Shown: positions 2,363 to 38,896 of the stretch, piece by piece | Layout of the letters: the number at the start of each line of letters is the position of its first letter | Position numbering within the stretch: position 1 is the stretch's first letter | Origin: Candidatus Sulfomarinibacteraceae bacterium | Lineage (GTDB): Bacteria; Chloroflexota; Anaerolineae; Promineifilales; Promineifilaceae | NCBI GenBank assembly: GCA_035464315.1 | Contig: DATHSI010000227.1 | Span: forward strand, 1-42,078 | Direction of reading: 5' to 3' | Length of the DNA: 42,078 bases | Made by a program: the position numbers and the translations under genes | Notes under the pieces: model-generated | The model's input: the letters and a program-made list of their open reading frames with translations, nothing else | What the model was told of the DNA's origin: nothing | Database searches by the model: none

Positions 2363-3010
2363 ATGTCGCAGGACACAGACCCGGATGACGATTGGCGCGA
2401 TGCCGTGCGCGAGGCGATGCATGAGGCAACGCTTCACGAAGCGCAGCAGCGCTTTGACAGCAGGGAGCCAGTTTACAATTATCGCTGGGAGCATGTGCGA
2501 GCTGTTCGTACGCTGGCCCTGAAGCTGGCACGGATGATGGGAGCCGACGAGGAGGTTGTGGAGGCCGCGGCATGGCTGCACGATGTGCGCAAGGTGGCCG
2601 GTGAGGAACACCCTGAAGAGGGGGCCGAATTTGCGCGCCGTTTCCTGGCCCAGACCAATTTTCCCCCCCATAAGATCGAACGCGTGGCCCAGGCCATTGC
2701 CGCGCACAAGGGGCTGTGGCGCGAGGAACCGTTACAGAGCGTGGAGGCGCAGGTGTTGTGGGATGCGGATAAACTCTCCAAGCTTGGCCTGACCGCCGCC
2801 TTCCACTGGACGGGGATGAGCTTCGCCAATGGCAATCCGCTGAGTACCGAAGACCTGATCGCCATGGCCCGCGATACCGATTGGCAGGAGAGGACTGTCG
2901 CCAGCATGCACACCCCGGCGGCGCGCCGGACCGCCGCAGAACGGTTGGCTTCGTATAACAAGCTCTGGGATTCTCTTGAGGCGGAACTGGAGGGGCGGGA
3001 TTTGCAGTGA
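2363..3010 (+). CDS. HD-domain metal-dependent phosphohydrolase
   Basis: Motifs AAWLHDVRKV and LWDADKL (the H...HD...D pattern of the HD superfamily). ATG at 2363 is preceded by GGAG at a 5-nt spacing. The ORF track starts earlier at a GTG (2282); which start is used is uncertain. Confidence 0.6.
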   Translation: MSQDTDPDDDWRDAVREAMHEATLHEAQQRFDSREPVYNYRWEHVRAVRTLALKLARMMGADEEVVEAAAWLHDVRKVAGEEHPEEGAEFARRFLAQTNFPPHKIERVAQAIAAHKGLWREEPLQSVEAQVLWDADKLSKLGLTAAFHWTGMSFANGNPLSTEDLIAMARDTDWQERTVASMHTPAARRTAAERLASYNKLWDSLEAELEGRDLQ

Positions 3011-3013
3011 ATG

Positions 3014-3073
3014 GGGATCGGAGATTAGCGATTAGTGAGCGAAACTGATTCAATCGCCAATCGCCAATCCCTA
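3014..3073. repeat. imperfect inverted repeat built from GATTAG/GATTGG heptad-like units (copy A of GGAGATY-type element), exactly between convergent stop codons
   Basis: Left arm ggggatcggagattagcgattagtgagcg, right arm attcaatcgccaatcgccaatcccta. Right arm is roughly the reverse complement of (GGCGATTG)n. The left arm contains TAG/TAG/TGA covering all three frames. Confidence 0.5.
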
Positions 3074-15702: not shown

Positions 15703-17445
15703 ATGCAACCGGAGTTCGTCATCATGTTGAAACGTCATTCGCAACTCTTTCTGCTCATCGCAGCCCTGGCAGCTTTTTCCCTGCTCGCCGTGGGCTGCCA
15801 GCCACAGCCGGAGCCGACGCCAGCACCGGAACCGTTCCCCGCACCGGTTGAGTTTGAGGCCAACGTCCTGCCGCCCGGTCCCGATCTACCCCGGGTCCAA
15901 TTGCGTCCGGGCCAGGCGCTGGTCGACGAACAGCTTGTGATCACCGGCGTCGGCGCAGACATCGACCGCGTGCTCGGTGCGCTGCCCGAGTTGCAGCTAG
16001 AGCCGTTGACCAGCACCTCTTTCGACTACCTGGAACGATACCAGTTGCCTGCGCCGGGCGGCGACCGGGATCAGCAGCAGAGCGTGGGCAAACGGCGCCG
16101 CAGCGGTCTGAGCTCCGTCATGCAGCAGGAGATGGCCACCCTGCGCGTTGACCTCTACGCGTTCTCCGCTGGCACTCCGCCGCTCTCCGACACACTGCAG
16201 ATCATCGCCGACACGGTTGAAGAGCTGGGCCAGGAACAGCAAGTACGCGTGGTCGCCGAGCCCAACTATGTGATGGGCTTCGAGATTACGGGCGACCCCT
16301 GGGCGGTTGAAGGCAGCCCGTGGGCCGTAGAGGGCAGCCCCTGGGCCGTGGAAGGGAGCCCCGCCGACGGCGGGCCGCATGCCAGCGATCACTTCTGGCA
16401 GCAGTGGGCCTTAGATGCCGGCAGCGGCATTGGCTTATTCTCTGCCGGCGCGCCTCCCGCCGGGCGTAATGCGGAGGGCGTGGGCGAGGGGATACGCGTT
16501 GCCGTTTTCGACACCTCGCCGTTTTCCGGCCCCGGCGGCTACCGTTTTGATCGCTGGGGACCGCCGGATGTACCGTCGCTGGCCCTCACTGTTTCAGAGC
16601 CGGTGGTGGTGCCCGTTTCTATGACCGGCGAGGATATTGTACTGATCAGCGACCACGGGCTCTTTGTCTCCGGCCTGGCCTACGCTGTGGCTCCCGCCGC
16701 CGAGATTCACCTGGTCAAGGTGTTGAATGAGCATGGGCAGGGCACGCTGCAGGCTTTCATCGACGCCCTGAACCTGTATATGCAGGAAAACGCCTCTCCG
16801 CCGGACGGCCTGAACAATACGATTATCAACCTCAGCCTGGGCACGTCGGAACCGGATGACGAGGAACTGCCGCCGGAAGCGCGACGCGCCATTGCGCGCA
16901 TGCTGGCGGTGTGGGGCTACCGGCCTCTGGCGGGCGAAGACAGCGTCGTCTTTTCGCTGGAATTGCCCATGCTCATCGCTGAAGGGCTGGGAGCCACCAT
17001 CGTCGCCGCTTCGGGCAATGACTCCATGAGCCCGCCGGAGGCCGCGCCGCTGCCGTCGCAGATTCCCGCCGCCTATCCGCAGATCCTTGGGGTCGAGGCC
17101 AGCAACCAGCAGCAGGCGCGTTCCTGCTTTGCTAACGAGGGCGATCTGGCTGCCCCGGGCGGCGATGGAGACGCCAACTGTGAGCCGGACCTGGAAGCCT
17201 GCGAAGGCATCGAGGGCGGCAGTTGCGGGGCCGGCGTTGTGAGCTATGTGCTGGCGGAACACGAGGGATTCGCCTACTGGGCGGGCACTTCGTTTGCCAC
17301 CCCCCTGGTCAGCGGCCTGGCGGGCCTGGTCCAGGAGGCGGGCGCCGGCAACCCCGACGTGGTACGTCAGACGGTGCTCTGCTCCGCTCAGAACACGGGC
17401 ATCGTAGATGTGGTGGAGGCGCTGACCAGTTGTGCCACGCCGTAG
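15703..17445 (+). CDS. subtilisin-like (S8) serine peptidase lipoprotein with PWAVEGS heptapeptide repeats
   Basis: Signal/lipobox LLAVGC. Asp region AVFDTS, His region SDHGLFVSGLAYAV, Ser region GTSFATPLVSGLAGL. Start taken at ATG 15703 (alternative 15724); the track ORF is extended upstream. Confidence 0.7.
   Translation: MQPEFVIMLKRHSQLFLLIAALAAFSLLAVGCQPQPEPTPAPEPFPAPVEFEANVLPPGPDLPRVQLRPGQALVDEQLVITGVGADIDRVLGALPELQLEPLTSTSFDYLERYQLPAPGGDRDQQQSVGKRRRSGLSSVMQQEMATLRVDLYAFSAGTPPLSDTLQIIADTVEELGQEQQVRVVAEPNYVMGFEITGDPWAVEGSPWAVEGSPWAVEGSPADGGPHASDHFWQQWALDAGSGIGLFSAGAPPAGRNAEGVGEGIRVAVFDTSPFSGPGGYRFDRWGPPDVPSLALTVSEPVVVPVSMTGEDIVLISDHGLFVSGLAYAVAPAAEIHLVKVLNEHGQGTLQAFIDALNLYMQENASPPDGLNNTIINLSLGTSEPDDEELPPEARRAIARMLAVWGYRPLAGEDSVVFSLELPMLIAEGLGATIVAASGNDSMSPPEAAPLPSQIPAAYPQILGVEASNQQQARSCFANEGDLAAPGGDGDANCEPDLEACEGIEGGSCGAGVVSYVLAEHEGFAYWAGTSFATPLVSGLAGLVQEAGAGNPDVVRQTVLCSAQNTGIVDVVEALTSCATP
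16297..16359 (+). repeat. 3 x 21-bp imperfect tandem repeat encoding PWAVEGS x3 inside the S8 peptidase gene
   Basis: ccctgggcggttgaaggcagc / ccgtgggccgtagagggcagc / ccctgggccgtggaagggagc. Confidence 0.6.
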
Positions 17446-19745: not shown

Positions 19746-20666
19746 TCAACCCCCGTCGCCGTAATCCAGAAAACGCTCTTCAATCCAGCCCGCTTCACCC
19801 TCTAACGTCTGCACCTCGCGCCATAGCGCACCGCCCTGGTTGGCTCGACGCGATAAGACGAGCAACGTCTGGCCGTGGCTGACCAGCTCCAGTTCCTGGC
19901 CGCCCGGTGATCGATAGAGCCAGATGTTGGCGCCGTCAGAGTCGACGACGGCCGTTTCTCCCTCCACCGGTGTCGGCGTCAGGGTAGGGGTGGGGGTGAA
20001 GGTCGGCGTGGGGGTTGACGTTGGCGTCTGGCTGGGGGTCGGTGTGGGGCTTGGCGTCCAGGTGGGGGTTGGCGTGTCGGTGGTGACGCGCGTGGGTGTG
20101 GCTGTGGCTGCCGCCGCTTCTTCTCCTTCCACCGTGGGCTCGCCAGGCTCGCCTTCATCCGTTGGCGTGGGAATGTCCGGCGTGGCTACCGGCGTTGTCT
20201 CCACGCCTTCGCCTTCGCTACCCTCAACCTCGTCATTTTCCGCGTCGAGCGTGGGTTCTTCGCGCGTGGGCACGCCACCGAAGGCGCCCGAGGAGGGGCG
20301 CGTAATTGTGGCGGTTCCCGTGATAGCCACAGTGGTGGTCATAGGCGCCGCCGGCTGGTCCTCCTCCGGTGACGGGACGGCGTCGCCGGCGACCGTCACC
20401 GGTGTCTCATCATCTACGCTGGCGACCGGTTCTACCTGCGGCTCACCCAGAGGCACCCCGGCGACGAAGAAGCCGGCGATCAGCAGCAGGCAGGCGAAAG
20501 CATAGCCTGTAAAGGCCCGCACCCGCAGATCAAGGCGATAAACGTCCAGACCCAGTCGTCGCATGAGCCCAGGTGATTGTCCGATGAGGGCCAGTGTTAC
20601 AAATATCAGGGCGCCAAGGGCCGAGAGACCCATGCCCCATAGAGTCCATGTTGGAAATCCCATCAT
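19746..20666 (-). CDS. membrane protein: N-terminal TM helices, Pro/Thr-rich linker, C-terminal SH3b-like domain
   Basis: Two hydrophobic helices at the N-terminus. TPTPTWTPSPTPTP linker. C-terminus ANIWLYRSPGG...GWIEERFLD is SH3_3-like. Confidence 0.5.
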   Translation of the reverse strand: MMGFPTWTLWGMGLSALGALIFVTLALIGQSPGLMRRLGLDVYRLDLRVRAFTGYAFACLLLIAGFFVAGVPLGEPQVEPVASVDDETPVTVAGDAVPSPEEDQPAAPMTTTVAITGTATITRPSSGAFGGVPTREEPTLDAENDEVEGSEGEGVETTPVATPDIPTPTDEGEPGEPTVEGEEAAAATATPTRVTTDTPTPTWTPSPTPTPSQTPTSTPTPTFTPTPTLTPTPVEGETAVVDSDGANIWLYRSPGGQELELVSHGQTLLVLSRRANQGGALWREVQTLEGEAGWIEERFLDYGDGG

Positions 20667-22291: not shown

Positions 22292-22365
<74 letters not shown>

Positions 22366-28759: not shown

Positions 28760-29236
28760 ATGGCAGAGATGCTAAACATCAAGCCTGGAGAAGTACCTGA
28801 GAATGACGCCGGCTACCTGGAGATGATGACCAAGGTCATCTTCATGGGCGGATTAAACCGGCAGGTGGTGGAGAGTAAGTGGGACGGTTTCCTGAGCGCT
28901 TTTGAAGAGTTCGACCCGGCTGGCGTGGCCAGTTTCACTGAAGAGGATGTGGAACGGTTGAGTGAGGACGAACGCATCGTGCGCTATGGGGCCAAAATCC
29001 GCGCTGTGGTGAAGAATGCCGGTCGCATGGTGGAGATCGCCGACGAGCATGGTTCCTTCGGCCAGTGGCTGCGCAGCTCCGTGCGCGACGAAGGCGTCGA
29101 CGACACGGCGCGAGCTCTATCCAGGCACTTCAGCTACGTCAGTGAGGAATCCGCCCGGCGCTACCTCTACGCCGTAGGCGAGGATGTCGGTGAGGTGACG
29201 AAGGAAGTGCGGCGCAAGTATGGGCCGGGGGAATAG
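28760..29236 (+). CDS. tag: DNA-3-methyladenine glycosylase I (Tag) family protein, short form
   Basis: YLEMMTKVIFMGGLNRQVVESKWDGFLSAFEEFDPAGVASFTEEDVERL...IVRYGAKIRAVVKNAG aligns with the E. coli Tag core (LFEMICLEGQQAGLSWITVLKKRENYRACFHQFDPVKVAAMQEEDVERL...IIRHRGKIQAIIGNA). AAAAGGAG SD before ATG 28760. It lacks the N- and C-terminal Zn-ligand segments of E. coli Tag. Confidence 0.6.
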   Translation: MAEMLNIKPGEVPENDAGYLEMMTKVIFMGGLNRQVVESKWDGFLSAFEEFDPAGVASFTEEDVERLSEDERIVRYGAKIRAVVKNAGRMVEIADEHGSFGQWLRSSVRDEGVDDTARALSRHFSYVSEESARRYLYAVGEDVGEVTKEVRRKYGPGE

Positions 29237-29403
29237 GAGAGATTGGAGATTGGTTGACTGGAGATTGGTTGCGGATGGCGCCATAGCGCCAAGCCGATAA
29301 ACGCAGATAATTTGAGATCTTTCATCAGCGTCTATCGGCGTCCATCGGCGGCAAAGATTCTCCAATCTCCAGTCTCCGATCTCCAATCTCCGATCTCCAA
29401 TCC
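29237..29403. repeat. GGAGATY-heptad inverted-repeat element, copy B (two arms of tandem heptads flanking an ~80-nt core), between convergent stop codons
   Basis: Left arm ggagagattggagattggttgactggagattggttgcgg. Right arm tccaatctccagtctccgatctccaatctccgatctccaatccc, i.e. (GGAGATY)n inverted. The core contains the palindrome atggcgccat. The element abuts the TAG of tag (+) and the TAG of the minus-strand GT-C gene. Confidence 0.6.
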
Positions 29404-31941
29404 CTATTCTCTCACAACCACCGGTCCCAATATGTACCGATCCCCAACCAGGTTGCCCTGCGCGTCGGCCAGGTGCAGGCGGCGACCGCTGGTCATTTCG
29501 TAGAGACCGACTTCGATGAAGTAATCGCCCGGTGGGAGGTCGTCCCTGATCGTCAGGCGATAGGGGTCCCACAGGCGTTGGCCGGGGAGCCACTTGGGAA
29601 TCCACAGGTGGGTGGGGGCGGCGCCGCCCAGGGGCGTGTAATCCAGCTCTTGATAGGAGCGGTTGGCGGCGTCGATGAGGTGCACGAAGACAGTATAGCT
29701 TTCCTCAGCCTGCGCCAGACTACGCCACTGCAAGAACAGATTGATTGTGTCGCCGTTCTGCACCGTCAGCGGCGTCTGCCACGGGCCGCGGCGCAGCGAT
29801 AGACCGCTCTGGGCCCAGGCCATAGACAACCCCACACGCTGGCGGAAGTTGGCCAGGAGCTCGTCTGTGTGCGGCGGGCGCGGCTGCGCCCGGACCTCTA
29901 GCGGCCCCAGTTCCACGTCCAGCGGCAGAAGCTCGTCCTGGCTCAGGTTCTTGAGAGCCAACGACAGCGGGTAGCTGCCCGCGGGCAAATCGTGGGGCAG
30001 TGCGAAGTCGAAACGTTCTACAATTACCTCTTCCGGTTCCCACAGCGGCGTCAGGAGGTGGTGGTCCGTCGTGTAAGTGTATTCAATGGCCTGCTTATCG
30101 CCTCCAGACGGCACGCCGCCCAGCGCGAGCGAGGGCACGTAGTACTCCTCCGGCGTTTGTGGTGCACGCATGGCCAGGACGAGGGGCACGAAGTCGCCCG
30201 CCGTTACCTCGCGCCGGGGCAGCCCGTAACCAACGACCTCGATCTCCCCCGCCGAGACCGCAAGCTCGTCCAGCTCCGGCGGGATGGATTCCTCGCCCGG
30301 TTCCACCACCTCGTAGAACGGTCCGCGCGGTCGCAGCCGGAAACCGGCGGCGACAATCTCGCTGCGGTAGCCGTTAAGGTAGACGGGGCCGCCGCCCAGG
30401 TAAGCGTAGACGCTTTCCACCCACGGTTGTTGTGTGGAGACGAATTCGGGGCGCACGTCGGTGGGATCGGGCCAGCGCTCGTTTACAAAGCGCTCGTACC
30501 ACATGGGCGTCATGTGCTCCCAGTCGTGCAGCAGCACGGCGCGCTCGGCGCGGCCCTCAAAGTAGTCGAAAACCGCTTCCACATAGCCGCGTCCCTCGTC
30601 GTAGTCGCGCAACGAAATGTGCGGCAGGTTGCGCGCGGCCTGTTGCACGGGTCCCAGCAAAAAGAAGACGGCGACGAGCAAGGCTGCGACGCGCGCGGTG
30701 GATTGTGCCCACCGGCCGGACTGCGTCCAGCGGCTGGATAAAATCCAGCTTGGCGCGGCGTGTACGACGGCCAGCAGCCCCAGGCCGGAGAGCATGCCCC
30801 AGAGCATGAAGGGTCCCAGCAGGTAGGCCATGATGTCCTGCGCGCGCAGGCTGATGACGAACGCGTAGTTGGCCAGGAAGGCCACACCGTAGAGCAGCGC
30901 CAGCCGCCGGCGCAGCGGGCCGGCGCGCCACAGCCACAGCAAGCCCAGCGGCGCCAGCAGGATGGTGGGCAACGCGTACTGCAGCCGCATCAGCGTCCAG
31001 AAAACGAGGGTGCGCAAAGGCTGTTCGGCCAGGCTGTAGAAGGGCAGGCTCTCCGTCAGCCCGCGGGCCAGAACGTGGTCCAGAAAGCCCTGTAGCGTGT
31101 TCATGTTGTGCGGCCCGAACACCGGCTCCATCGCGCTGCGCAGAGGGAAGTAGAGCCACACGCTTAACCCCAGCAGCGCCATCAGCAATGTCCTGACGAT
31201 GGTACGTCCCTGACGCCAAATGCCGGGGCGCACGGTAAGGATGAACAGGCCATAGGCGGGGAAGCCGAAGACGGTCAGTGGATGGTGCGTGATGCCCAGC
31301 CCGGCGGAGAGAGCGAAGATGTACAGCCAGCGGTCGTCCCCCTCATCGGTCAACTTGCCGGCGTCTCCGGCGTGGGAGAGTCCCCAGCGCGTCAGGAGGT
31401 AGAGGTTGGCCATGAGGAAAGTGGCCGTGATGATGTGCGGGTTGGCGTGAATGGCGTGTTGCCACACGTCGGTTGCCAGGCCCACGGACAGCGCGCCGAA
31501 TAGGGCCGCCCACCCCGCCGGGAATCGGTCTGGCTCACGCCCGGCGACGGCGCGGATCATTCCGTATATGAAAATGGCGGCAACCGTGGCGCTGGTTGCC
31601 GACAGCAGGTGCATGCGCCACGGAATGTCGCCCAAGGGAATCAACGTCTGGAACAGTTTGCCGGCGAGGGTGATGAAGGCATACCCTGGCGGATGGGCGA
31701 TGCCCAGCACGTTGGCCACCAGCGTATACTCGGTCGGATCGCCGAGGACGAGGGAGCGGGCGAGGGTGAGGAGATAGAGGAGGGGAAGGGCGAGGAGGAG
31801 TAGGGGCTGGAGATTGGAGATTAGAGATTGGGGATTAGAGATTGGAGATTGGAGATTACTGGCACGCCTCGCCGCTCGCCGCTCTCCGCTCTCCGCTCTC
31901 CGCTCTCCAATCACCATGCCCTTACTTCCTGATTGCGTCAT
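29404..31941 (-). CDS. DUF2723/TMEM260-like GT-C family membrane glycosyltransferase (protein O-mannosyltransferase-like)
   Basis: Polytopic N-terminal half with GDPTEYTLVANVLGIAHPPGYAF (the DUF2723 signature region), then a large C-terminal soluble domain. The first ~40 codons of the track ORF are encoded by repeat copy C; the true start may be ATG 31917 or further downstream with a non-ATG start. Confidence 0.6.
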   Translation of the reverse strand: MTQSGSKGMVIGERRAESGERRAARRASNLQSPISNPQSLISNLQPLLLLALPLLYLLTLARSLVLGDPTEYTLVANVLGIAHPPGYAFITLAGKLFQTLIPLGDIPWRMHLLSATSATVAAIFIYGMIRAVAGREPDRFPAGWAALFGALSVGLATDVWQHAIHANPHIITATFLMANLYLLTRWGLSHAGDAGKLTDEGDDRWLYIFALSAGLGITHHPLTVFGFPAYGLFILTVRPGIWRQGRTIVRTLLMALLGLSVWLYFPLRSAMEPVFGPHNMNTLQGFLDHVLARGLTESLPFYSLAEQPLRTLVFWTLMRLQYALPTILLAPLGLLWLWRAGPLRRRLALLYGVAFLANYAFVISLRAQDIMAYLLGPFMLWGMLSGLGLLAVVHAAPSWILSSRWTQSGRWAQSTARVAALLVAVFFLLGPVQQAARNLPHISLRDYDEGRGYVEAVFDYFEGRAERAVLLHDWEHMTPMWYERFVNERWPDPTDVRPEFVSTQQPWVESVYAYLGGGPVYLNGYRSEIVAAGFRLRPRGPFYEVVEPGEESIPPELDELAVSAGEIEVVGYGLPRREVTAGDFVPLVLAMRAPQTPEEYYVPSLALGGVPSGGDKQAIEYTYTTDHHLLTPLWEPEEVIVERFDFALPHDLPAGSYPLSLALKNLSQDELLPLDVELGPLEVRAQPRPPHTDELLANFRQRVGLSMAWAQSGLSLRRGPWQTPLTVQNGDTINLFLQWRSLAQAEESYTVFVHLIDAANRSYQELDYTPLGGAAPTHLWIPKWLPGQRLWDPYRLTIRDDLPPGDYFIEVGLYEMTSGRRLHLADAQGNLVGDRYILGPVVVRE
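31808..31912. repeat. GGAGATY-heptad element, copy C: (GGAGATT/AGAGATT)x7 followed by (CGCTCTC)x4
   Basis: ggagattggagattagagattggggattagagattggagattggagatt ... cgccgctcgccgctctccgctctccgctctccgctctcc. It overlaps the annotated 5' end of the GT-C ORF on the minus strand. Confidence 0.6.
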
Positions 31942-33040
31942 AGATTCTCAGCGTTTCCTGCGCCGCGCGCGCCCAGCTGAAACGGGCGGCCTGTTCCAGG
32001 CCTAGATGCCGGCGTTGATGGTAGTCGTCGCTGTCCTGCAGCAGGCGGCGAATCACGTTCGCCATTTCCTCGGTGCTGGTGGGATCGAAGTAGGCCGCTG
32101 CGTCGCCGCCCACTTCAGGGTGCGAGCTGCTGTTGCTGGCGGCGACGACCTGGCCACAGGCCATATGCTCCAGGAGCGGCAGGCCGAAGCCTTCGTAGAG
32201 GCTGGGCTGCACGGCGAGGTCGGCGGCGGCAATGACGGCGGGTAAATCGTCGTCCGCCACCCAGCCCAACGGCACAACCGCATCCTGTAGGCCCAGCTCT
32301 TCGATGCGCGCGAAGAAATCGTCGTAGAGCCAGCCCTTGCTGCCTGCCAGGACCAGGTGCAGGTCGGGGTAGTCGCGGCGCACGATGAGCAGCGCGTCCA
32401 GTAGGCGACTCAGGTTCTTGCGCGGTTCGATGGTGCCCAGGTGAATCAGGAACTGCGGGGGCAGATCGTACTGTGCCCGCACGCGTTGCACGTCTCGCGC
32501 CTCCGGTGGGCGGAAATGATCGGCCGCTGCTTCGTGAACGACGTGTATCTTAGCCGGATCGACCGCGTAATGCGTGATGATATCCTGTCGTGTGGCCTGC
32601 GAAACGGCCACGATGGCTGCGGCGCGCCGGCAGAAAATGGGCATGGCTGCGTTCAGAAACCAATAATTTAACTTTTTGTGGTAGGCGGGAAAGAGCTTGA
32701 AAATCAGGTCGTGCACCGTGAGGACGGTGGGCACGCCGCGCAGGGGCAAGAGCAGATGCTCCGTGCTGTGGAACAGCGTGGCGTCCGGCACCAGGCGGTT
32801 GAAACCCTTCCGGCTGAGGTGGCCCAGCAACACCAGCATGCGCCACGGTTTGTAGCCCAGCTTTATGCTGCGGCGGGGAGCCGAGGCCAACGAGGTGGGC
32901 AGGACACCGTCGGCCCCTCTATTATAGAAAAGAGCGATCTCCTCCGCTCGCTGCGCGCGCAAAGCCTGCGCCAGTCGCTCGCTGTAGCGGCCAAGGCCGG
33001 CCCGGCTGTGAACGGCTGCCGACACATCTACGTAGATCAC
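31922..33040 (-). CDS. glycosyltransferase family 4 (GT-B, retaining)
   Basis: EGFGLPLLEHMACGQVVAASNSSSHPEVGGDAAAYFDP is the classic GT4 EX7E region. GTG start at 33040. Confidence 0.75.
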   Translation of the reverse strand: MIYVDVSAAVHSRAGLGRYSERLAQALRAQRAEEIALFYNRGADGVLPTSLASAPRRSIKLGYKPWRMLVLLGHLSRKGFNRLVPDATLFHSTEHLLLPLRGVPTVLTVHDLIFKLFPAYHKKLNYWFLNAAMPIFCRRAAAIVAVSQATRQDIITHYAVDPAKIHVVHEAAADHFRPPEARDVQRVRAQYDLPPQFLIHLGTIEPRKNLSRLLDALLIVRRDYPDLHLVLAGSKGWLYDDFFARIEELGLQDAVVPLGWVADDDLPAVIAAADLAVQPSLYEGFGLPLLEHMACGQVVAASNSSSHPEVGGDAAAYFDPTSTEEMANVIRRLLQDSDDYHQRRHLGLEQAARFSWARAAQETLRIYDAIRK

Positions 33041-33085: not shown

Positions 33086-33127
33086 ATCATGCTTGCTCCA
33101 TCATGCTTGCGCCATCATACTTGCTCT
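33086..33127 (-). repeat. 3 x 14-bp tandem repeat (minus strand GGnGCAAGyATGAT) spanning the epimerase stop and the GT4 5' leader
   Basis: Plus strand atcatgcttgctcc / atcatgcttgcgcc / atcatacttgctct. Each unit carries an SD-like GGAG/GGCG/AGAG + ATGAT on the coding (minus) strand. Confidence 0.7.
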
Positions 33128-34068
33128 TTTTCCCACCACTCCGTGCACCAGGAGACCGCTTTATGAATGCCTTCACGCAGAGGCGTTGCCGGCTCGTAGC
33201 CGAGGAGCGCGCGCGCCTTGCCGATGTTGGCCACGTAATGGGTGACTTCGCCCACACGAGAGGGTTCGATGGACATCTCGGGCTCCACGCCCAGGGCCTG
33301 GCCTACGTAACGGGCCATGGTCACCAGGCTGTTGCCCTGTCCATAAGCCAGGTTGATGGTGTGGTTGGCCTCGTCGCCGGAAGCCAGCAGGTCAATGCCC
33401 GCACGCACGCCCGCGATGCAGTCGTCGACGTAGGTGAAATCGAGTACTTTGTCTTCGCCGTAAATTGTGATCGGTTCGCCGCGGTCGATTTTACGGATAA
33501 AGAGGGGGATCACGCGCTCCATGCGCTCCAGGTCGTTATCGTAACGCCCGTAGACGTTGCTGAAGCGGAAAACCAGATAGCGCAACCCGTAACATTGGGC
33601 GTAGGCGTAGATCAGGGCCTCCCCGGAGATTTTGCTCGCGGAGTAGGGACTCTCCGTAAAGGCGAAGTCGGCGTACGATTCCTCGGTGATGTAGCGGTGG
33701 ATATCACCGTACACCTCGCGCGAGCTGCTGAAGATGAGGGGCAGAGCGTTCTGGCGGCAGAACTCGAGCACGTTGTAGGTCATGGTGATATTTTGCAGAG
33801 CGCGGTCGGGCTCTTCGACCAACTCGTGCACCTTGGCGTGAGCCGCAAAGTGCACCACGACGTCCAGATCTTCCGGATATTGCACGTGGCCGATGCCGCC
33901 CTCGAAGCTGTGATAGGGCGCGCTCAAGTCCTGCAACAGCGTTTCGAATTCGTCCGTCCAGGGGTTGAGACGGATGTCGATGCCAAATACGTAATGTCCA
34001 TCGCGGAGCAGGCTCAGGGCCAGGTTGGTCCCGATCTGCCCGCTGGAACCGGTAATTAAAACTCGCAT
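33115..34068 (-). CDS. NAD-dependent epimerase/dehydratase (SDR family; UDP-sugar epimerase-like)
   Basis: N-terminal MRVLITGSSGQIGTNLALSL Rossmann motif. Catalytic YSASK (YxxxK). AAGGAGA SD upstream of ATG 34068. Confidence 0.85.
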   Translation of the reverse strand: MRVLITGSSGQIGTNLALSLLRDGHYVFGIDIRLNPWTDEFETLLQDLSAPYHSFEGGIGHVQYPEDLDVVVHFAAHAKVHELVEEPDRALQNITMTYNVLEFCRQNALPLIFSSSREVYGDIHRYITEESYADFAFTESPYSASKISGEALIYAYAQCYGLRYLVFRFSNVYGRYDNDLERMERVIPLFIRKIDRGEPITIYGEDKVLDFTYVDDCIAGVRAGIDLLASGDEANHTINLAYGQGNSLVTMARYVGQALGVEPEMSIEPSRVGEVTHYVANIGKARALLGYEPATPLREGIHKAVSWCTEWWEKEQV

Positions 34069-34120: not shown

Positions 34121-34250
34121 GGCCGAGCTCTGCTCGGCTGGGGCCAAGCTTCGCTCGGCTGGGGCCAAACGAAGTTTGGCCGGGCCTGACCGCTGCTTAG
34201 TCAGGATTGAACTTCGTTTGGCCGGGCCTGACCGTTGCTTAGCCAGGGTT
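34121..34250. repeat. structured intergenic region: two 17-nt direct repeats (period 20) and two 27-nt direct repeats (period 42) with embedded hairpins
   Basis: gctcggctggggccaa at 34133 and 34153. gtttggccgggcctgaccg(c/t)tgcttag at 34174 and 34216. Hairpins gccgagc-tct-gctcggc and ggccaaa-cgaag-tttggcc. A longer stem pairs aaacgaagtt with aacttcgttt. Confidence 0.6.
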
Positions 34251-34259
34251 GGAGTTTGT

Positions 34260-35012
34260 TCAGCCGGGGCGGTTGAGCAGGACGCGCAGGGCAAAATGGG
34301 GCAGGGCCAGCATGCGACGCCAGCGCCAGGGTTCGTGCAGCAGGCGGTGTAGCCATTCCAGCCCCAGGCGTTGCCAGCCACGCGGCGCGCGGATGGCGCG
34401 GCCCGTGACGAAGTCGAGAGCGCCGCCCACGCCCAGAGCCAGGCGCACGTCCGTCAGCGCGTGGCGGTTGCGCGCAATCCACTTGTCTTGCCGTGGCGCG
34501 CCGTAGGCCACGTAGAGCACGCGGGCGCCGCTGTTGTTGATGCGCGACACGATTTCGTCGTTCTCGGCGGGGTTCGGCGAGCCGGCGTACGCGCCGGCAA
34601 TCGTCAGCCCTGCATAGCGCGCGCGAAATATCTCGCCCGCCTCCTGGGCCACGCCGGGCGCCGCTCCCAACAGGTACAGGGGCCAGCCCTCCTGCGCCGC
34701 TAGCTGCGCCAGATGGTAAACTAGCTCAGACCCCGGTACGCGTTCCGGCAGACGCTGCCCGTAGCGTCGCGCTGCGTAGAGCAGACCTATGCCGTCCGGC
34801 AGGCAGAGATCGGCTTCGCGCAACACCTTCAAGAAGTGTGCGTCGCGCTGCGCCGTCATCACAAACTCAGGGTTTACCGTGGCGATCTGGTGCAGGCGCG
34901 GCTCCTGCATGAAGGTGCGCGCAAGGCGCAGCGTCTCGTCCATGGTCACGGGATGGATGGGAACGTCCAGAATGGGTAGCGGGCTGGGGGAAGCGCCAGA
35001 GACGTCGCTCAT
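34260..35012 (-). CDS. WecB/TagA/CpsF-family glycosyltransferase (N-acetylmannosaminyl-type transferase)
   Basis: ILDVPIHPVTMDETL...ATVNPEFVM...LPDGIGLLYAARRYG...GAPPGVAQEAGE...YAGSPNP pattern of the Glyco_tran_WecB family. Start set at ATG 35012, which overlaps the upstream stop (ATGA). The 80-aa N-terminal extension in the track ORF overlaps the upstream gene and is rejected. Confidence 0.65.
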   Translation of the reverse strand: MSDVSGASPSPLPILDVPIHPVTMDETLRLARTFMQEPRLHQIATVNPEFVMTAQRDAHFLKVLREADLCLPDGIGLLYAARRYGQRLPERVPGSELVYHLAQLAAQEGWPLYLLGAAPGVAQEAGEIFRARYAGLTIAGAYAGSPNPAENDEIVSRINNSGARVLYVAYGAPRQDKWIARNRHALTDVRLALGVGGALDFVTGRAIRAPRGWQRLGLEWLHRLLHEPWRWRRMLALPHFALRVLLNRPG

Positions 35013-38247: not shown

Positions 38248-38352
38248 TAGAGATTGGAGATCAGAGATTGGAGATCAGAGATCGGAGATTGGGAAACTTA
38301 CGCTCTCCAACCTCGAATCAACCAATCTCCAGTCAACCGATTTCCAATCTCC
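38248..38352. repeat. GGAGATY-heptad inverted-repeat element, copy D; its distal end overlaps the last codons and stop of cysC
   Basis: Left arm agagattggagatcagagattggagatcagagatcggagattggg. Right arm cgctctccaacctcgaatcaaccaatctccagtcaaccgatttccaatctcccc. The 17-mer ccaatctccagtcaacc is the exact reverse complement of ggttgactggagattgg in copy B. Confidence 0.6.
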
Positions 38353-38896
38353 CCTGTGGAATCAACTGCTGTTGCTCCAGATAATGCAATATTTGTTGCG
38401 CGCTTTCTTGCGGTGTCTGGCGGTCGGTGCGCACGTGGATGTCGGGGCGCACGGGCGCTTCGAAGGGGTCGGAAATGCCGGTGAAGTTTTCGATTTCGCC
38501 GGCGATGGCTTTCTCGTATAGCCCTTTTACGTCACGCTCTTTTACTACTTCCAGAGGGGCGTCGACAAAGACTTCGATGAAGTTAGTGGTTTCCTCGCGC
38601 ACTTTGTCGCGCACCGCCTGATAAGGCGAGATGAAGGAGCAAATGCAGGCGATGCCGTTGCGCGAGAGCAATTTGGCCACGAAGGTCACGCGCTCGATGT
38701 TCTTATCGCGGTCTTCCTTGGTGAACCCGAGATCGCGCGTCAGGCTCTCGCGGACCACGTCGCCGTCGAGGCGCTCCACTTTGAGCCCGCGCTTCTTAAG
38801 TTCTTCTACCAGAATGAGGGCAATAGTCGTCTTGCCGGCGCCGGAGAGGCCCGTCATCCATACAACAAAGCCCGGGTGTGTGTGATTGTCGTTCAT
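38333..38896 (-). CDS. cysC: adenylyl-sulfate (APS) kinase
   Basis: P-loop VVWMTGLSGAGKTT. Classic CysC length and motifs (ICSFISPY, GEIENFTGI). Confidence 0.85.
   Translation of the reverse strand: MNDNHTHPGFVVWMTGLSGAGKTTIALILVEELKKRGLKVERLDGDVVRESLTRDLGFTKEDRDKNIERVTFVAKLLSRNGIACICSFISPYQAVRDKVREETTNFIEVFVDAPLEVVKERDVKGLYEKAIAGEIENFTGISDPFEAPVRPDIHVRTDRQTPQESAQQILHYLEQQQLIPQGRLEIG

Follow-up and report, generated by a model that had tools for sequence, protein, structure and literature searches.

The DUF2723 gene on a 42,078-nucleotide (nt) stretch of contig DATHSI010000227.1 (assembly GCA_035464315.1; the whole stretch is hereafter called the window) encodes a TMEM260-like glycosyltransferase of the GT-C type. 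Its candidate start codons are separated from its first membrane helix by a hairpin built of seven-nucleotide repeats, here called element C. Sequence comparison with related loci suggests that this repeat is probably translated, as an N-terminal tail of the enzyme. Support for this reading comes from the orthologs, which have no start downstream of the element, from the preservation of the reading frame, and from similar hairpins that lie in frame inside proteins. The features concerned are the following.

29404–31941, minus strand: open reading frame (ORF) of the TMEM260-like/DUF2723 GT-C glycosyltransferase, from the ORF list, Pfam and a PDB match.
31922–33040, minus strand: upstream GT4 glycosyltransferase gene, with Pfam domains Glycos_transf_1 and Glyco_transf_4.
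31939–31941, minus strand: candidate start ATG 31941, within Tyr-Asp codons (TAT GAC) near the 3' end of the GT4 gene.
31915–31917, minus strand: candidate start ATG 31917, 4 nt past the GT4 stop (TAAGGGCATG) and 3–6 nt before the first heptad.
31867–31911, minus strand: 5' arm of element C, mRNA GATT-(GGAGAGC)4-GGCGAGC-GGCGAGG, translated as IGERRAESGERRAARR.
31858–31866, minus strand: loop of element C, mRNA GCGUGCCAGU.
31808–31857, minus strand: 3' arm of element C, mRNA (AATCTCC)7 with variant units, translated as NLQSPISNPQSLISNLQ.
31744–31806, minus strand: coding region of the first membrane helix (PLLLLALPLLYLLTLARSLVL), from the alignment of 120 homologs.

PF11028 matches residues 68–236 of the DUF2723 product (E = 2.6e-24; 86.4 bits against a cutoff of 24.2), and human TMEM260 (PDB 9rql) matches residues 42–410 of the 837-residue form (E = 1.1e-10). 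The homolog set consists of the best 120 sequences (57–100% identity), almost all from Chloroflexota metagenome-assembled genomes (MAGs) labelled Ardenticatenaceae or Promineifilaceae. The genomic comparison covers 80 loci around DUF2723 orthologs, and the census of repeat arrays covers the window and 81 related loci (1.34 Mb). In the alignment of the 120 homologs, the first helix and the GDPTEY...GIAHPPGY motifs are invariant; since the helix lies upstream of these motifs, it must be translated. The gene order, GT4 followed by DUF2723, is kept across the ortholog loci.

On the mRNA strand, the junction between the two genes reads ...TAT GAC GCA ATC AGG AAG TAA GGGC ATG GTG ATT (GGAGAGC)4 GGCGAGC GGCGAGG CGTGCCAGT (AATCTCC)7 AGCCCCTACTCC.... 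The GT4 stop is the TAA at 31924–31922, located 10–13 nt ahead of the first heptad. Element C (31808–31911), a heptad hairpin of the form (GGAGAGC)n-loop-(AATCTCC)7, fills the stretch from start to helix, and its 3' arm leads straight into the first membrane helix. An earlier reading of the DNA alone (the sequence-only reading) had proposed that the residues between the starts and the helix are encoded by the heptad arms, and this is borne out. The in-frame ATG, GTG and TTG codons 5' of the first helix are limited to ATG 31941, ATG 31917 and GTG 31914, the last immediately after ATG 31917; upstream of the helix, the window gene has no in-frame TTG or CTG. Near-cognate codons in frame in the same stretch are ATT (codon 11) and ATC (codons 34 and 41). 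The sequence-only reading had listed the two ATGs as the only starts and had placed both inside the repeat. It was right about the existence of these ATGs, about the N-termini that it quoted for them and about the absence of a canonical start between the repeat and the helix, but it overlooked GTG 31914 as a third candidate. Its placement needs correction as well: ATG 31941 lies inside the GT4 gene, while ATG 31917 stands ahead of the first heptad, although within the base of a predicted stem. Annotation pipelines differ on the start, the NCBI record (HSM57625.1) giving 845 aa from ATG 31941 and the ENA record 837 aa from ATG 31917. In close relatives, the start picked by the pipelines is a GTG of the loop or a TTG of the arm.

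The repeat nature of element C is evident from Tandem Repeats Finder, which reports 7.1 copies of period 7 at 31808–31857 (TGGAGAT) and 5.9 copies of period 7 at 31868–31908 (CTCTCCG), the latter with 97% matches. Across the window, GGAGATTGGAGATT with up to two mismatches occurs 20 times against 0.22 expected, and GGAGAGCGGAGAGC 6 times against 0.61 expected. Together, the arms make up an inverted repeat, though an imperfect one, with 5/7 bases per unit paired. The mRNA strand of 31790–31950 has a predicted fold of −66.6 kcal/mol (z = −3.75), and none of 200 shuffled sequences folds as well. In this fold, the stem base pairs AGGAAGUAAGGGCAUGGUGAUUGGAGA with UCUCCAAUCUCCAGCCCCUACUCCU and thereby encloses the GT4 stop, the Shine-Dalgarno-like AGGAAG and AUG 31917, while AUG 31941 is left unpaired. 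The window differs from an independent assembly, ENA contig L082, by 8 single-base changes in 4514 nt, with no insertion or deletion and no change inside element C. Because this independent contig carries an identical copy, the element is not an assembly artefact.

Orthologs that lack the element start at an ATG 3–9 nt past the GT4 stop (MRKYLKPELLLL...) and have a methionine and 5–10 further residues before the helix; in the window, nothing downstream of the repeat corresponds to this ATG. Orthologs with an insert use a different start, an ATG formed by Tyr-Asp/Glu codons of the GT4 gene (TATGAC), which gives N-termini of the type MTNYS... or MKRYF... and makes the start region run into GT4 by about 17–38 nt. 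ATG 31941, which overlaps GT4 by 20 nt, is the homolog of this overlapping start in 23 ortholog loci and is conserved across clades. With the window counted, 24 loci use the overlapping ATG, in frame and open; the distance from ATG to GD is 37 codons without an insert and 46–68 codons with one. In loci L026, L071, L073 and L080, the overlapping ATG is the sole canonical candidate upstream of the helix; where a locus has a downstream ATG of its own, no particular frame is kept for the TATGA-type ATG. ATG 31917 is also present in L081 (TAAGGGAATG), a relative with 85% identity.

These observations bear directly on a second option that the sequence-only reading had allowed, in which the repeat forms a 5' leader that is not translated and initiation takes place at a non-canonical codon shortly before the helix; ATC, ATT or the like would be the candidates. 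Several points are in its favor: in-frame ATT and ATC codons exist, the element-free orthologs need only a few residues ahead of the helix, and neither ATG has a strong Shine-Dalgarno match. That reading had also suggested that orthologs might reveal a conserved start downstream of the repeat, hidden here as TTG or CTG. The comparison of N-termini revealed no conserved start downstream of the element among the orthologs compared, which argues against an untranslated leader, as does the set of four loci where the upstream ATG is the only canonical candidate. The ATC codons of the window belong to the pyrimidine arm and are not preceded by a purine-rich ribosome-binding sequence, and a start at ATC would leave no positive charge before the helix.

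Heptad-encoded N-termini are found in proteins P0005, P0006, P0011, P0013, P0063, P0069, P0091, P0103 and P0107, and at loci L001, L015, L016, L026, L043, L046, L054, L058 and L071. In these orthologs, the GT4 stop adjoins the first heptad directly (e.g. ACA TAG GAGATTGGAGAC...) and the pyrimidine arm leads into the first helix (NLQSLISNLSLLLIP...). They fold into near-perfect hairpins with z-scores of −3 to −8.8, compared with −1.4 to +1.3 for element-free orthologs. On a neighbour-joining tree, the N-terminal element occurs in three separated clades, which implies at least three gains, or many losses.

The slot between start and helix is also occupied by other repeat types. The peptide FNAEAQRRGEK fills it in L037, L052, L080 and L018; L032 has 'TEGTEDTQRTQR...VYRLL' / 'TEGTEDTQRTQR...VYRLLVTVYRLL'. 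Octamer-derived tails (AEEQRSRG; P0039 and P0090) and GAAGAGC-derived tails (EERRAKS) occur elsewhere, and L045 and P0056 carry other repeat types as well. Where the DNA was compared (L037, L052, L080, L018, L032 and L045), these inserts are in frame with the overlapping ATG. The FNAEAQRRGEK-type inserts of L037, L052 and L080 have no significant fold. Two orthologs are split into two ORFs each (P0126 and P0129; P0127 and P0130, on ENA contigs of 732 kb and 120 kb), with the break far from the heptads, which suggests assembly frameshift errors or pseudogenes.

In every ortholog with an element, the upstream start is kept in frame and free of stops, although the elements vary in length and type. 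L081, the closest relative (85% amino acid identity), carries an element at the same site and has both ATGs. With arms of (GGAGATC)~9–10 and (AATCTCC)10, it has 72 codons from ATG to GD where the window has 58, which corresponds to exactly three additional heptads (21 nt) in each arm. In the MTNYS clade, the lengths (47, 48 and 50 codons) are a whole number of codons apart. The strain variants P0107, P0128 and P0129 also keep start and frame, and their tails are far more variable than the remaining protein. A leader would not need to keep an ATG in frame, yet all element-bearing loci do so, with length differences that are multiples of three. The tail peptides themselves are unrelated (GERRAES... 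in the window versus EIGDQRS... in L081). As the frame is kept while the tail varies, selection appears to act on the open frame and not on the sequence or charge of the tail. The sequence-only reading had described an Arg-rich tail that obeys the positive-inside rule. This fits the window, where the net charge of the tail is +3 or +4, but not L081, where it is 0 to +2, and positive charge was thus rejected as a conserved function of the tail.

Hairpins of the same kind are found well inside proteins. In an internal loop of the DUF2723 protein, after FGFPAYALFIL, a complete in-frame heptad hairpin is present in L046, L054, L058, L071, L052 and L026, in the context FILSIWW[QKEIGDWRLETGKTHLNLQSLISNLRRLIKHN]WLTALKM. 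The copies located on the DNA are as follows.

L046, 10509–10581: internal-loop hairpin.
L054, 10665–10737: internal-loop hairpin.
L058, 10588–10663: internal-loop hairpin.

The same site is empty (FIVWIRPSLLKEWRTLLKM) in L043, L080, L037, L015, L016, L081 and the window, and P0054 and P0069 have a third insertion site near residues 96–124. Unrelated metagenome ORFs show the same arrangement: Pfam domains span an in-frame hairpin in a molybdopterin oxidoreductase (L088), a SAM methyltransferase (L126) and a GT4 protein (L176), and in a class I (Ile-type) tRNA synthetase (L162), the hairpin lies between the catalytic and anticodon-binding domains, at about residues 682–715 of a 1105-aa ORF. Since translation cannot bypass an insert that lies within a conserved protein, such elements are read through, which again argues against an untranslated leader. 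Of the two options that the sequence-only reading had offered, it is thus the translated repeat that the relatives favor, with the frame kept, the element in three clades and in-frame copies inside proteins.

Element C belongs to a wider family. The window holds four heptad hairpins (A–D), all with inverted arms and all adjoining stop codons; those other than C are listed here.

3011–3072, no strand assigned: element A, a short hairpin, GGGGATC GGAGATT AGCGATT ... AATCGCC AATCGCC AATCCC.
29237–29403, no strand assigned: element B, a hairpin with a loop of ~90 nt.
38249–38352, no strand assigned: element D, which fills the gap between two minus-strand genes.

Element A is flanked by convergent stops at 3008–3010 (plus strand, HD-domain gene) and 3077–3075 (minus strand). 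Element B lies between the convergent TAG stops of a methyladenine glycosylase gene (29234–29236) and the DUF2723 gene (29406–29404), and each of its arms begins one base past a TAG; because these arms start right after stops, the DUF2723 gene has element C on one side and element B on the other. Additional small hairpins (GGCGCCATAGCGCC) are present in the loop of element B, as is a tandem repeat with a 10-nt period at 29323–29350. One arm of element D supplies the last ~6 codons and the stop of an APS kinase gene (38333–38896, minus strand; ...GRLEIG*), and the start of a PrmC-like methyltransferase gene, ATG 38239, lies 9 nt past the other arm with no visible ribosome-binding sequence. The folds of the element copies range from −29 to −85 kcal/mol.

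The consensus of the family is (GGAGAYY)n, loop, (RRTCTCC)n, such that either strand reads purine arm, loop and pyrimidine arm. The canonical unit GGAGATT is free of stop codons in all six frames and, as its length of 7 is not divisible by 3, each arm gives the same cyclic heptapeptide in every frame: a GDWRLEI-like peptide from one arm and NLQSPIS from the other. In the census, 86 arrays have period 7, against 0, 8, 28, 2, 1 and 0 arrays of periods 5, 6, 8, 9, 10 and 11, and AATCTCC is the commonest period-7 unit. By approximate statistics, 23 of the 86 arrays are no more than 5 nt away from a predicted stop, where 2.3 are expected. Four or more perfect GGAGATT units are present on at least 120 metagenome contigs. 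Enough sequence upstream was available for 104 arrays, and for 31 of these a long ORF ends no more than 30 nt away, compared with 10% for random positions. A metagenome scan with an exact pattern for the junction of GT4 end and element found no match.

Other repeats were noted along the way. Period-8 arrays are the second commonest class in the census, and many heptad units share the form NNNGATT (ACCGATT, GCGGATT, GACGATT and others). Around the start of the epimerase gene (33115–34068, minus strand), repeats with periods of 21 nt and 42 nt (2.1–2.3 copies) and 14 nt (2.9 copies) are present at 34121–34268 and 33086–33126. A 21-nt tandem repeat (3.2 copies) and G-rich repeats with periods of 6 nt and 18 nt, probably within ORFs, are located at 16296–16362 and 19982–20110. 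The contig is labelled Candidatus Sulfomarinibacteraceae (Acidobacteriota), yet the labelled DUF2723 homologs among the matches listed are from Chloroflexota, many of them Ardenticatenaceae or Promineifilaceae, in all but two cases (one Zixibacteria and one Cellvibrionaceae MAG). Judging from these labels, the contig is probably mis-binned or mislabelled.

Translation of the repeat is probably explained as follows. The GT4 and DUF2723 genes are packed without a true spacer in this lineage, so that a hairpin placed right after the GT4 stop falls within the 5' coding part of the DUF2723 gene. Translation from ATG 31917 and/or ATG 31941 probably adds a tail of 29–45 residues before the first helix, and selection keeps an open frame of the right phase rather than a particular amino acid sequence. 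We infer that initiation uses one or both of these ATGs; the position of ATG 31917, 4 nt past the GT4 stop, suits termination–reinitiation. Proteins of the GT-C type have their N-terminus inside the cell and their catalytic first loop outside. By analogy with this general topology, the tail is likely cytoplasmic and unstructured. The hairpin may also act at the level of the nucleic acid, for example by stabilising the upstream message at its 3' end or by coupling the two genes.

Several points weigh against a translated tail. Both ATGs have weak Shine-Dalgarno matches (−4.3 kcal/mol at 13-nt spacing for ATG 31941 and a slightly better −5.0 kcal/mol at 5-nt spacing for ATG 31917), and the location of ATG 31917 in the base of a −66 kcal/mol stem should hinder free initiation. 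The sequence of the tail is not conserved even in the 85% relative L081, leaving a role of the tail at the protein level without support. Shared ancestry within clades explains part of the preservation of the frame, such that independent observations are fewer than loci. In addition, the flanking genes were called by a crude longest-ORF method, which makes the statistics on proximity to stops approximate.

A possible, though rather unlikely, alternative is that the hairpin is kept mainly as a cis-acting RNA device and that translation of the repeat is a side effect; the two readings can coexist. Such a device would either stabilise the 3' end of the GT4 message, or sequester the ribosome-binding region and AUG 31917 and thus couple translation of DUF2723 to that of GT4. 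The enclosure of the GT4 stop, AGGAAG and AUG 31917 by the stem base, with AUG 31941 free, is consistent with this, as are the presence of hairpins at the same inter-cistronic site in three clades and the preference of the family for sites right after stops, which is shared by the heptamers of Xanthomonas and Nostoc (PMC4692102). However, both strands fold about equally, and for L081 the fold of the antisense strand is even the better one (−111.5 versus −87.0 kcal/mol), so that there is no sign of selection acting on the sense RNA in particular. Selection on the sense strand was rejected on these grounds, as no consistent strand preference was seen in five family hairpins at different sites, two ortholog N-terminal copies and one internal copy. 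The arms are homogenised internally rather than co-varying, with only five of seven bases per heptad paired in the window, and many orthologs manage without a hairpin. A scan of the window with Rfam 15 at the gathering score gave no match at element C, its sole hit being a tRNA at 22292–22365, and a known RNA family was thus ruled out. A Rho-independent (intrinsic) terminator was ruled out as well: a terminator scan gave no match at the element, and the stem is followed by CCAGCCCCUACUCC with no U-tract. A regulatory role of the hairpin, by message stabilisation or coupling, is plausible but unsupported.

A broader proposal, which we regard as speculative and improbable in its full form, is that the (GGAGAYY)n/(RRTCTCC)n palindromes constitute a distinct 'coding-compatible' repeat class in Chloroflexota, perhaps recruited as a structural switch at packed operon junctions, with occasional on/off slippage by one unit. 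In such a scheme, the stop-free 7-nt unit would settle at gene boundaries and in permissive loops in any frame and would be resized by slippage in 21-nt steps. The purine arm would be Shine-Dalgarno-like and the pyrimidine arm its complement, which would allow the hairpin to act as a gate or coupler for translation of the glycosyltransferase downstream.

Phase-variable simple repeats are found in the 5' coding region of glycosyltransferase or lipopolysaccharide genes of the Haemophilus lic and Neisseria lgt type. As in those systems, element C places a tandem unit whose length is not a multiple of three between the start and the body of a gene for glycan synthesis, and gain or loss of one unit could shift the frame and switch the glycan transferase on or off. 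The perfect (GGAGAGC)4 and near-perfect (AATCTCC)7 tracts would suit such a switch, the number of units does change over evolution (7 per arm in the window versus ~10 in L081), and a TTG in another frame at the start of an arm (GTGATTGGAG) could rescue a shift by one unit. We nevertheless consider a switch very unlikely. In contrast to the lic and lgt repeats, no out-of-frame variant is present in the assemblies: unit counts are identical in the window and L082, the change of three units per arm in L081 keeps the frame, and P0107, P0128 and P0129 are all in frame, although this is a small sample drawn from assemblies only. A further difference is that the heptad repeat forms one arm of a palindrome whose copies are also found at ordinary intergenic positions and within essential housekeeping proteins such as the tRNA synthetase, where switching would be lethal. 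The untranslated leader, contradicted by the starts, frames and read-through copies described above, is likewise very unlikely.

Heptameric repeats known from other bacteria are the nearest counterparts of these elements in both build and position. The unit is GGGAATC in Xanthomonas and GGGGA(C/T)T in Nostoc/Anabaena; they are of the STRR type, first seen in Calothrix (Rehm et al. 2015, PMC4692102). The Xanthomonas and Nostoc heptamers preferentially lie 0–50 nt after the stop of the upstream ORF, or overlap it, and between co-directional ORFs, and those of Xanthomonas frequently form convergent pairs able to fold into stem-loops (PMC4692102). The elements described here resemble them in consisting of tandem 7-nt units, in which AT(T/C) follows a purine-rich core, in having many dispersed copies, and in being over-represented relative to other unit sizes. 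The four copies of the window also lie at stops, and their arms are inverted as in the convergent pairs of Xanthomonas. The Nostoc-type unit GGGGATT is one base away from GGAGATT, and GGGGATT units occur inside element C. The differences are equally marked. The known heptamers are reported to be under-represented in coding regions and a G-quadruplex explanation has been proposed (PMC4692102), whereas the hairpins here are repeatedly in frame within coding regions and their units (GGAGATT, GGAGAGC and GGAGATC) have GG runs only, apart from occasional GGGGATT variants. As the unit lacks runs of three or more G, the G-quadruplex model is inapplicable here. The hosts differ as well, being Chloroflexota (Ardenticatenaceae/Promineifilaceae-type genomes).

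The Rickettsia palindromic elements (RPEs), or 'protein-coding palindromes' (Ogata et al. 2000, 2002), are the nearest precedent in behaviour, having inserted in frame into many genes according to a later account (PMC10969869). The likeness extends to palindromic repeats of ~70–170 bp in frame in unrelated protein genes, including housekeeping enzymes, and to host proteins that stay intact with a short recurring extra peptide; both filled and empty sites are seen among the orthologs here. Homology between the heptad elements and RPE families is unlikely given the heptad build and the Chloroflexota host, and the descriptions set them apart. The phylum and lifestyle differ, the heptad elements are built of 7-nt units that give the same peptide in any frame and can change length by slippage, and most of their copies are intergenic beside stop codons rather than intragenic. 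The sequence-only reading had called the situation at the DUF2723 start unusual, which holds only in a relative sense, since heptamer hairpins beside stops (PMC4692102) and protein-coding palindromes (PMC10969869) both have precedents.

Among the REP/BIME and MITE-type palindromes (REP, ERIC, BOX, Correia and Nezha), some stabilise the upstream mRNA, alter downstream expression or make in-frame fusions (PMC10969869). The heptad hairpins resemble these as small dispersed hairpin-forming repeats at gene boundaries but differ in that their arms are simple-sequence arrays of variable unit number, with no fixed length. No target-site duplication with a terminal inverted repeat was seen on comparing filled with empty sites, internal and N-terminal, and the element consists of arm, loop and arm; a typical MITE was rejected because the flank is not duplicated at these sites. 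No transposase was found among the selected window ORFs scanned against Pfam. We found no description in the literature of this repeat, of its peptides, or of heptanucleotide repeats in Chloroflexi.

As to the function of the element, the sequences appear to support tolerated translation only. Read-through of the hairpins would nevertheless give a rule for calling starts and stops beside heptad hairpins in Chloroflexota genomes. The junction of the GT4 and DUF2723 genes is a testable site for a role of hairpins at operon junctions. Protein-coding palindromes are best documented in Rickettsia, and the elements described here would represent a separate case in free-living Chloroflexota, built of heptamers and reaching even a tRNA synthetase. 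They would also link the long-unexplained excess of heptamers in some bacteria to a concrete property, namely a stop-free unit that gives the same peptide in every frame.

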